Shown here: piece by piece, positions 20,932-22,122 of the stretch
Numbering within the stretch: the first letter of the stretch is position 1
Layout of the letters: each line of letters opens with the position of its first letter
Virus record (IMG/VR): IMGVR_UViG_3300020201_000102
Span: 1-22,290 of that record
From: a virus
Length of the DNA: 22,290 nt
Reading direction: 5' to 3' (one strand)
Notes under the pieces: generated by a model
Database searches by the model: none
Seen by the model: the letters and a program-made list of their open reading frames with translations, nothing else
Told to the model about the DNA's origin: nothing
Program-made: the position numbers and the translations under genes

Positions 20932-22122
20932 ATGTCTGACCTGAATCTACCTGACATCCCGCTCGAAGCTGAAGTCCCCGTCGATGTCGAGGACGTACGT
21001 GACGAATCTCTCGGTGCTGCCTCCTACGCCTTCATCGGTTCCGGACAGGGCGGTGGACGTTTGGCCGAGGCGTTCTTTAAGCTCGGATACCGGAAGACAA
21101 TCTGTGTCAACACCGCGAAGCAGGACCTCGCCAGCCTCACGCTCCCTGATGAGCAGAAAGTCCTCATCTCCGCGGGAGAGCAGGGAGCTGGGAAGGACAT
21201 GAGAGTCGGAGAGGAGGCTGCCGCTAAGGCCCAGCAACAGATCTTCGAGCTCGTCAAGAAGAAGTTCGGACAGATCGATCACATCTTCATCTGCATCGGT
21301 GCCGGCGGTGGTTCAGGTGGCGGATCCAGCCTGGTCCTGATCGAGACGGCCAAGAAGTACCTCGTCTCCATGGGAATCGATGACGTTGACCAGAAGGTCG
21401 GGGTGGTCATGTCGCTTCCGACCAATGGTGAATGCGCTTCTCCGAACGTCGCCAAGAATGCCCAGTTCCTGGCCGATGCTCTCTGCAAGTTCGCAAAAGA
21501 GAAGCTTATCAGCCCGCTGATCTTCGTCGACAACGACAAGATCCAGAAGATGTACCCGAAGCTGACCGTGAAGGAGTTCTGGCCCACCGTCAACGCGACC
21601 GTGGCCGGACTCTTCCACGTCTTCAACCTGATCCCCACCAAGGATACGCCATACACCACGTTCGACGCGGCCGATTACGGTTCTCTCATGCGCGCCGGCG
21701 GGTGCATGATCATGGGTGTGACCTCAGTGCGCGACTTGAAGGATGCCAACGGCATCTCCTCAGCCATCCGCGGGAACCTTGAGAAGACCCTCCTCGCTGA
21801 GGGATTCGATCTTCGTACGGCCACCCACGCCGCCGCGATCGTCCTTGGTGGTAAGAGCATCTTTGAATCTGCTCCAGGTCTCATGGGCGCCATCGAGGGT
21901 GGGCTGGACACCCTTGCCGCCATGACTGGCAAGGCGATGGTGCACCGTGGCATCTACGAGGACGACAAAGACCGACTGGCGGTCTACACTATGGTCGGAG
22001 GGCTCGCCTCTCCGGACAAGAGGATCAAGGCGCTTGGACGCCACCAGGCTCCGAAAGGGGACGAGAAGACTGAATCGGCGATGCCGGCACCGAAGTTTGG
22101 CAGCAGACTTTACGACGAGTGA
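20932..22122 (+). CDS. FtsZ/tubulin-superfamily GTPase (phage-encoded FtsZ-like protein)
   Basis: IGSGQGGGRLAEAF matches the FtsZ block GVGGGGGNAV. VNTAKQDL matches NTDAQAL. GEQGAGKDMRVGEEAA matches GLGAGANPEVGR.AA. IGAGGGSGGGSS is the GGGTGTG signature. SLPTNGE is the T5 loop and FVDNDKI matches the N.D block. TTFDAADYGSLMRAGGCMIMGV matches the T7 block N.DFADV..VM...G.A.MG.G. Confidence 0.85.
   Translation: MSDLNLPDIPLEAEVPVDVEDVRDESLGAASYAFIGSGQGGGRLAEAFFKLGYRKTICVNTAKQDLASLTLPDEQKVLISAGEQGAGKDMRVGEEAAAKAQQQIFELVKKKFGQIDHIFICIGAGGGSGGGSSLVLIETAKKYLVSMGIDDVDQKVGVVMSLPTNGECASPNVAKNAQFLADALCKFAKEKLISPLIFVDNDKIQKMYPKLTVKEFWPTVNATVAGLFHVFNLIPTKDTPYTTFDAADYGSLMRAGGCMIMGVTSVRDLKDANGISSAIRGNLEKTLLAEGFDLRTATHAAAIVLGGKSIFESAPGLMGAIEGGLDTLAAMTGKAMVHRGIYEDDKDRLAVYTMVGGLASPDKRIKALGRHQAPKGDEKTESAMPAPKFGSRLYDE

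Follow-up and report, generated by a model that had tools for sequence, protein, structure and literature searches.

A 22,290-nt stretch of viral DNA (positions 1 to 22,290 of the IMG/VR record IMGVR_UViG_3300020201_000102, hereafter the window) encodes, on its plus strand at 20932-22122, a GTPase of the tubulin/FtsZ superfamily of 396 amino acids (aa). This protein belongs to a third clade of phage tubulins, which is devoid of the known accessory systems and uncharacterised, and which sequence comparison places on the TubZ side of the superfamily, distinct from FtsZ, from PhuZ and from the TubZ of phage c-st. With a probability of roughly one half, it is a functional polymerising GTPase that forms a filament for the spatial organisation of phage replication, of packaging and assembly, or of both, possibly while tethered to a membrane.

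The gene is an uninterrupted open reading frame (ORF) with an ATG start and a TGA stop, and its coordinates are identical to those of a preliminary description made from the sequence alone, which had presented the product as a member of the superfamily with all of its loops, including the acidic residues of T7. All the motifs quoted there were found, and three approaches agree in placing the protein inside the tubulin/FtsZ fold. The Pfam model Tubulin (PF00091) matches with an E-value of 1.5e-10 (42.1 bits for a cut-off of 33). The AlphaFold2 model, computed from an alignment of 60 sequences (A1), has two domains, with a predicted local distance difference test score (pLDDT) of 87.7 and a predicted template modelling score (pTM) of 0.87, and is disordered only at residues 1-20 and about 370-396. 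Foldseek returned more than 1000 matches at E <= 0.001, headed by TubZ, CetZ and FtsZ. Against the PDB, TubZ-Bt (2XKA), RepX/TubZ (4EI7) and CetZ2 (4B45) matched at about 1e-21 (1.4e-21 for CetZ2) and FtsZ structures at about 1e-19, the longest alignments being those to TubZ (about 390 columns, full length, TMq 0.70-0.74).

The GTP pocket, formed by loops T1 to T6, is complete. The phosphate-binding T1 loop GSGQGGG (residues 36-42; 21037-21057) aligns with GVGGGGG of FtsZ, the T3 loop GAGKDMRVG, involved in sensing the gamma-phosphate (residues 85-93; 21184-21210), with GAARNPQVG of RepX and GAGANPEVG of FtsZ, and the T6 motif VDND (residues 199-202; 21526-21537) with IPND of FtsZ. The T4 tubulin signature GAGGGSGGG (residues 123-131; 21298-21324) retains the conserved glycines in the variant form GGGSGGG, as opposed to the GGGTG[ST]G type, and the T5 loop SLPTNGE (residues 161-167; 21412-21432) is recognised from the alignment and from the conservation of P163. 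T7 and H8, TFDAADYGSLM (residues 243-253; 21658-21690), align with VDFAD of FtsZ and FDASE of RepX and are followed by GGCMIMG (residues 256-262); D245 and D248, the T7 acidic pair, correspond to D209 and D212 of E. coli FtsZ in a MAFFT alignment. Judged on the sequence, such a set of loops lies far beyond chance. Among 110 family representatives, reaching down to about 30% identity, conservation is 95% or more at G36, G38, G41, G85, G126, G127, G129, G131, P163, D200, N201 and D245 and 80% or more at D248, which shows strong purifying selection on the residues of the GTP pocket and on the acidic pair.

Independent, indirect evidence comes from inteins, which home into and persist at indispensable sites of important proteins. 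Eight members of the family are 745-983 aa long and contain two matched stretches each. The interpretation of these proteins as fused double tubulins was rejected, as seven of the eight are single tubulins split by inteins, which carry LAGLIDADG homing endonucleases, while in the eighth (P0154) about 340 aa are inserted at T7 and Pfam recognises no intein there. In P0122, P0173, P0177, P0209 and P0254, the intein lies within the T4 signature, between the equivalents of G127 and S128. In P0122 (locus L102, 6001-8466), GAGGG precedes a LAGLIDADG-bearing intein that begins with C and ends in HN, and TGGGG follows, the threonine of the signature itself acting as the +1 nucleophile. The intein of P0178 occupies the T1 loop and that of P0227 is mapped less precisely. 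Because the T4 and T1 loops are the sites of insertion, GTP binding and hydrolysis would be essential to the role of the protein. Inteins within the signature motif of a tubulin do not seem to have been described before, and their presence indicates that the gene matters to the phage. Their placement and the conserved residues together suggest GTP-dependent polymerisation with activated hydrolysis.

The best characterised relative, and the best sequence match among PDB structures, is RepX, the TubZ of plasmid pXO1 (phmmer 1.6e-19; family profile 5.6e-28; BLAST 1e-18, with 25.7% identity over 339 aa). The best FtsZ in the PDB reached 2.4e-10 with phmmer and 1.3e-14 with the family profile, and E. 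coli FtsZ gave no significant match in pairwise BLAST (E 3.6). The FtsZ equivalog model of NCBIfam (TIGR00065) scored 58.2 bits for a cut-off of 295, and the FtsZ_C domain (PF12327) was found neither in the window protein, nor in 120 relatives with precomputed Pfam matches, nor in the further relatives scanned. Identity with FtsZ was rejected because of the low equivalog score, the lack of FtsZ_C and the BLAST result, and the earlier impression of a greater proximity to cellular FtsZ than to TubZ is thus reversed. Nor is the gene part of a division or cell-wall cluster, its flanks encoding phage tail proteins, PolA, a gp32-like protein and RecA.

Identity with PhuZ was also rejected, as the preliminary description had anticipated. 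The phiKZ PhuZ gave a BLAST E-value of 0.011, the PHROG family of PhuZ (PHROG 4733) an E-value of 0.016, and the PhuZ models in BFVD a TM-score of about 0.5 with 12-15% identity; the PhuZ-type C-terminal domain (PF22334) was found by Pfam in phiKZ PhuZ and not in the window protein. Neither chimallin nor a split multisubunit RNA polymerase was seen in the window or in the related loci L001 and L003. The sole close structural match in BFVD (7e-32) is a protein of an uncultured phage labelled 'FtsZ'. Among the remaining members of the superfamily, c-st TubZ matched in its N-terminal GTPase half only (BLAST 3e-6; family profile 6e-12), CetZ proteins were reached by the family profile at 1e-15 to 1e-17, and gp138 of Bacillus phage G was matched by BLAST at 9e-20 with 24.9% identity.

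The C-terminal domains recognised by Pfam further separate these groups, since RepX carries TubZ_C, c-st TubZ carries TubZ_C_3, PhuZ carries TubZ_C_2 and marine members of the clade carry TubZ-like_C (PF22453). Marine relatives pass the 26-bit cut-off of the latter model with 31.9 and 38.6 bits, the window protein scores 22.4 bits, and gp138 has no match; TubZ_C (PF21493) gives only weak or faint matches. In a bootstrapped, distance-based neighbour-joining (NJ) tree, which includes one FtsZ and no CetZ and in which deep nodes are weak, the phage proteins form a cluster (64%) apart from sequences of Planctomycetota, both being far from the branches of RepX and phage G, c-st TubZ, PhuZ and FtsZ. 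In the same tree gp138 groups with RepX, outside the clade of the window protein.

This clade is large. phmmer, run exhaustively against 1.84 billion cluster representatives, returned 1224 proteins at E <= 0.001, 515 at E <= 1e-10 and 213 at E <= 1e-30, the last figure being a count of clusters at 50% identity. In a word-indexed search, more than 400 close relatives were found, including some from farmland soil and Tara ocean sources, and several close relatives lie on contigs of about 196-204 kb. Cultured phages contain no close relative, as gp138 (25% identity) was the only match in a tblastn search of 50,697 GenBank phage records; Microcystis phage Mel-JY01, the nearest cultured phage according to the tail sheath (37% identity), gave no match in the tubulin search. 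The existence of the Pfam TubZ-like_C model and of labels such as 'cell division GTPase FtsZ' indicates that these sequences have been seen before but are unstudied. In the literature searched, where absence is no proof, no description was found of this phage clade, of tubulin inteins or of the tubulin pair of Planctomycetota described below.

The gene resides in a phage, as had been proposed. Upstream and on the same strand, phage gene annotation of the window identifies a tail sheath (35-2083), a tail tube (7227-7718), a baseplate hub (9207-10016), a tape measure (10211-13336) and a baseplate wedge-like protein (15485-15799). The additional qualification of this phage as T4-like holds only in part: the C-terminal part of the sheath resembles gp18 of T4-like cyanophages and PHROG tail matches cover the baseplate, but the polymerase is of family A. 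An identical copy of the tubulin gene is present on a second contig (L003), in which the gene is followed by a 123-aa ORF, a 1552-aa protein, a metalloprotease-like ORF, a gp32-like protein and RecA.

In a survey of 80 IMG/VR loci, based on our own clustering of ORFs, the sub-clade of the window (L001-L005) shows the order tail, PolA, tubulin, RecA. The neighbours are wholly different in a marine group (about 55% identical, about 70 loci, GC content about 39-44%), in which the order is an SbcCD-like fusion, the small ORFs c8 and c4, tubulin, c6, the zinc-ribbon protein c3, c2, a T4-type large terminase, a gp20 portal protein and a gp21 prohead protease. A more distant member (P0150, 38% identical) is found in another phage-like contig from soil. 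The clade is thus present in at least two myovirus lineages, and the tubulin gene has been retained in several phage lineages at differing genomic positions. Three features of this context were counted in favour of a phage role, namely the operon-like position between tail and replication modules in the lineage of the window, the position directly ahead of the terminase, portal and protease genes in the marine relatives, and the maintenance of the gene in at least two lineages whose neighbours are otherwise non-homologous.

The local signals in the window are consistent with expression as part of an operon. The tubulin gene has a Shine-Dalgarno sequence, read directly as AGGAAG (20920-20925, plus strand), 6 nt upstream of the ATG. 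The start codon lies 3 nt past the stop codon (20926-20928) of an upstream ORF on the same strand, p270 (20116-20928; 252 aa in another calling), so that translational coupling is likely. A downstream ORF, whose first 50 codons are present before the window ends (22140-22290, plus strand), starts 17 nt past the tubulin stop with its own GGGAG Shine-Dalgarno sequence. No promoter-like (sigma-70) or terminator-like site was detected on the plus strand between 17000 and 22290. Tight spacing, individual Shine-Dalgarno sequences and a plus strand free of such sites up to the end of the window therefore argue for an operon-like arrangement, in which p270 is probably co-transcribed with the tubulin gene.

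Both ends of the protein, outside the folded core, carry short conserved segments. The acidic N-terminal peptide LNLPDIPLEAE (residues 4-14; 20941-20973, plus strand) is disordered in the model (pLDDT about 50), although P7 is invariant and E12 nearly invariant in the 60 sequences, and IPDLPLEAE-like peptides are common to the sub-clade of the window, the marine phage copies and the planctomycetal copies. The C-terminal tail (residues 369-396; 22036-22119, plus strand), similarly disordered (pLDDT about 50), ends in MPxxxFGxRLYxE, a motif conserved in P0002-P0036 and absent from marine and planctomycetal copies. From their sequences, the former is a candidate docking motif and the latter a candidate partner-binding peptide. 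The tail motif varies by sub-clade and so does the type of membrane protein encoded next to the tubulin gene.

Small proteins of about 100-137 aa adjoin the tubulin gene in otherwise unrelated neighbourhoods; they combine a charged helical region with a transmembrane segment at one terminus. In the sub-clade of the window, the downstream 123-aa ORF (cluster c97), complete in L003 (4469-4840), combines a coiled-coil-like region with a C-terminal transmembrane segment. The corresponding segment is N-terminal in c93 and c251, of L001 (11201-11569) and L005 (9790-10161), and in the marine group c4 is encoded upstream and c6 downstream of the tubulin gene (L022, 7668-7997 and 9148-9528). The topologies of these neighbours therefore vary, including a C-terminal segment, an N-terminal segment, or a signal peptide with a C-terminal segment. 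Under a definition chosen post hoc (85-150 aa, terminal transmembrane segment and charged helix), 4 of the 24 adjacent gene clusters encode such proteins, compared to 3 of the 214 clusters elsewhere (Fisher P 0.002). The association of membrane proteins with the tubulin gene is suggestive, and the 123-aa protein is, from its sequence, a candidate membrane tether.

In the reading favoured here, GTP-bound subunits would join head to tail, and the T7 loop of one subunit, with D245 and D248, would complete the GTPase site of the next and activate hydrolysis, resulting in a dynamic (cytomotive) filament during lytic infection. This filament would give spatial order to the replication of phage DNA, to packaging and assembly, or to both, independently of a TubR/tubC centromere, by analogy with PhuZ and TubZ, which do likewise for their DNA cargoes. 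The disordered N-terminal peptide and the C-terminal tail of the sub-clade would recruit partners, the likeliest being the small, charged and helical product of the adjacent gene, whose membrane anchor would serve to tether the filament.

Several observations weigh against this reading. No cargo adaptor or DNA site was found around the tubulin genes examined. The two phage lineages carry the gene in different modules, hence the context singles out no one process, and the T4 late promoter (TATAAATA) is essentially absent near the marine tubulin copies. The enrichment in membrane proteins depends on the post hoc definition given above; a cruder test, counting any transmembrane-like segment at position +1, yields a P of about 0.04-0.06, and the neighbourhoods L074, L076, L077 and L079 are without such a small membrane protein. 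Finally, a host-derived auxiliary gene acting on host structures would fit equally well, because the nearest cellular relatives are chromosomal genes of Planctomycetota.

These cellular relatives were identified by scanning one genome per GTDB species, which returned 13 loci, 11 of them in metagenome-assembled genomes (MAGs) of Planctomycetota from independent studies (Pirellulales, Sedimentisphaerales and Phycisphaerae). The contigs are chromosomal, and the flanking genes encode D-Tyr-tRNA deacylase (dtd), glutathione peroxidase, RecR, sigma-54, AccD, an ECF sigma factor, a histidine kinase, a response regulator and a DegT aminotransferase. At six loci the genes form tandem pairs of paralogs (L084, 377-1474 and 1698-2726; L086, 2588-3685 and 3926-4972; L087, 2686-3783 and 4076-5116; L089, 6001-7113 and 7490-8542; L092, 235-1332 and 1906-3003; L094, 6001-7044 and 7542-8615). 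Identity with the window protein is 48-52% for the 'A' copies and 43-45% for most 'B' copies. In the B copies of Pirellulales, the T3 and T4 loops are degenerate while T7 is intact, and the protein is fused to an AAA+ lid region of the NtrC/ZraR type; this asymmetry between A and B is reminiscent of alpha/beta-tubulin. To our knowledge, Planctomycetota lack FtsZ and divide without it. Another tubulin-related protein present in Planctomycetes, the FtsZl-1 of Makarova and Koonin, has a Tubulin_2 domain and a coiled coil (PMC2875224); it was rejected as the identity of the clade, since its architecture differs.

The existence of these genes raises the possibility, rather unlikely in our estimate, that the phage protein derives from a host and mimics or takes over the host cytoskeleton, co-assembling with, replacing or poisoning a filament of the planctomycetal A/B type and not FtsZ, which would alter the division, shape or internal organisation of the host during infection. 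The closest cellular relatives (43-52% identity) are indeed chromosomal genes of planctomycetal MAGs with housekeeping flanks, the acidic N-terminal peptide is common to phage and cellular copies, and the GC content of the window (52.7%) falls inside the range of the planctomycetal MAG contigs. However, the NJ tree puts the phage proteins in a cluster of their own that is nested in neither cellular paralog, the sub-clade of the window has a C-terminal tail which the cellular copies lack, and the fact that highly divergent phages have kept the clade, inteins included, suggests that its function is central to the phage.

A second alternative, which we regard as quite improbable, is a partition motor of type III, similar to TubZRC, that would segregate the phage genome as a plasmid-like episome in lysogeny or pseudolysogeny, as in c-st, pXO1 and pBtoxis. 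It draws on RepX/TubZ being the nearest characterised relative by both sequence and structure and on the relatives that pass the Pfam TubZ-like_C threshold, but identity to RepX is only 26% and the components of such a system were not found. In the reference layouts of pXO1 and c-st, tubR is directly upstream, unlike here. The protein encoded directly upstream of the window gene, p270, is restricted to the sub-clade, with 16 homologs and no adaptor-like features; it was rejected as a TubR-like adaptor, its AlphaFold2 model being poor (pLDDT 57) and its best Foldseek match (E 0.46) revealing no winged-helix or other DNA-binding fold, and it has a weak PGDYG-like C-terminus. PDB sequence searches with p270 and p169 gave no match. 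Comparison of the marine neighbours c2, c3, c4, c6 and c8 with TubR (pXO1 and c-st) and TubY gave hhalign probabilities below 4%. Only short, chance-level matches were found when iterons or tandem arrays of the tubC kind were sought in the window at 19400-22290 and in L003 at 1800-5200, and no integrase or partition gene was seen in the approximately 32 kb of this genome that were covered.

In the reference locus of pXO1 (L097, 1006-2676), a 111-aa ORF, presumably TubR, is directly upstream of repX, the c-st locus (L101, 25792-28075) contains, in this order, tubR (CST190), tubZ (CST189) and tubY (CST188, of the MerR family), and the PhuZ gene of phiKZ (L100, 1931-2914) stands alone.

The preliminary description had also raised the idea that the protein could co-polymerise with host FtsZ and block or redirect the Z-ring, which we consider highly improbable. 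In its favour, the fold and the longitudinal-interface loops are in common with FtsZ, and phages do target FtsZ, though with unrelated small proteins such as lambda Kil. Against it, the protein has no significant pairwise similarity to E. coli FtsZ, falls far short of the equivalog cut-off and lacks FtsZ_C, and its FGxRLYxE tail is unlike what we take to be the peptide of FtsZ that binds FtsA and ZipA. There would be no precedent for hetero-polymerisation between proteins sharing only about 20-24% identity, and the nearest cellular relatives belong to a phylum that, as far as we know, is FtsZ-less, so that the idea gains no support.

The preferred reading, that of a phage filament organising replication and/or assembly, can be combined with the planctomycetal link in a broader proposal, which is tentative and, taken as a whole, doubtful. 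In this proposal, a third class of phage cytoskeleton would consist of a TubZ-side tubulin that the small adjacent transmembrane protein, with its charged helical region, holds at the membrane by way of the terminal peptides of the tubulin. This tubulin would be used by widespread uncultured myoviruses, marine relatives with T4-type head genes among them, and would have been exchanged in evolution with the chromosomal tandem A/B system of the FtsZ-less Planctomycetota. If true, these phages would infect Planctomycetota, and would either bring their own version of the unconventional cytoskeleton of the host or subvert it. The planctomycetal tandem paralogs may matter more than the phage clade, as the cytoskeleton of this FtsZ-less phylum becomes a directly testable question, and the A/B pair and the signature-motif inteins may be of independent interest.

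Other features of the window and of related loci deserve a brief description. The family-A DNA polymerase ORF (17597-18976) is short (459 aa) and comprises only the palm and fingers part; its last 74 nt are shared with a second ORF (18903-19550), whose PHROG match carries the annotation metal-dependent phosphohydrolase. The same pair of ORFs occurs in L001 and L102, which suggests that the polymerase of this lineage is split or modular. The giant ORF located two genes 3′ of the tubulin gene (L003, 4850-9508, 1552 aa), with a homolog of 973 aa in L001 (11566-14487), appears by eye to contain repeats of a module of about 250 aa ('...GSG..G.AY....G.VLK.T.D..EA...') with a protein-kinase-like look, and Pfam recognises a cytidylyltransferase-like domain. 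Between the tail-tube and baseplate-hub genes are three tRNA genes (8695-8770, 8939-9017 and 9024-9098), two of which were identified by ARAGORN as tRNA-Ile with the anticodon AAT, which we believe to be unusual, and the third by Rfam only. A 42-nt tandem repeat (13676-13854, 4.3 copies, 78% matches) lies inside a 711-aa ORF following the tape-measure gene and hence encodes a repeated unit of 14 residues.

Only two phage tubulins have been studied so far, the PhuZ of nucleus-forming jumbo phages and the TubZ of the c-st prophage, and the same two types are those recognised in a survey of jumbo phages (PMC7824862). A survey of the evolution of the superfamily published in 2023 treats neither a phage clade of the present kind nor the planctomycetal pair (PMC9871819). 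The third clade has a far wider distribution, its hundreds of sequence clusters coming from soil, marine and other metagenomes, and it is without the accessory systems that account for cargo recognition in the known phage tubulins.

Compared to TubZ/RepX (RepX of pXO1, 4EI7; TubZ-Bt, 2XKA), the window protein shares the full-length fold, the GTPase loops, the T7 acidic residues and a disordered C-terminal tail after the core. It differs in its identity of about 26%, in a TubZ_C domain of the RepX type that is at best faint, in a conserved acidic N-terminal peptide of its own, in the lack of an upstream tubR and of tubC iterons, and in its carriage by a contractile-tailed phage, whereas TubZ/RepX are carried by low-copy plasmids. 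With FtsZ and CetZ, the fold and loops are also shared; the FtsZ equivalog score, the FtsZ_C domain and a division-gene context set FtsZ apart, and CetZ proteins are archaeal. The c-st TubZ is phage-encoded as well, but the similarity is confined to the N-terminal half, its C-terminal domain is TubZ_C_3, and TubR, TubY and a centromere belong to the c-st system, none of them having been found at the window gene. The position of tubY 3′ of tubZ loosely parallels that of the small membrane protein downstream of the window gene, and the C-terminus of c-st TubY is reported to bind membranes (PMC7762940).

The gp138 of phage G resembles the window protein in being the product of a single tubulin-type gene, next to which, in the genome of this large myovirus, no TubR-like gene is annotated; it differs in its 24.9% identity, in its grouping with RepX in the NJ tree and in having no TubZ-like_C match. 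Labelled 'putative FtsZ-like cell division protein' and named only 'xxxxx' in the phage G record, it has been noted but is uncharacterised (bioRxiv 10.1101/2024.12.16.628780). PhuZ (gp39 of phiKZ and gp59 of 201phi2-1) is likewise a phage GTPase of the tubulin superfamily that operates without TubR and tubC. Sequence similarity to PhuZ is barely detectable, the PF22334 domain is found in phiKZ PhuZ and not in the window protein, and the phages differ in that the marine relatives of the window protein adjoin T4-type terminase, portal and protease genes. PhuZ nevertheless provides the best functional analogy, since this protein is reported to form a filament that organises phage DNA and capsids in lytic growth (PMC4244570, PMC9891218). 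Knowledge of the function of the third clade would reveal how contractile-tailed phages of ordinary size, including relatives with T4-type heads, organise the infected cell.

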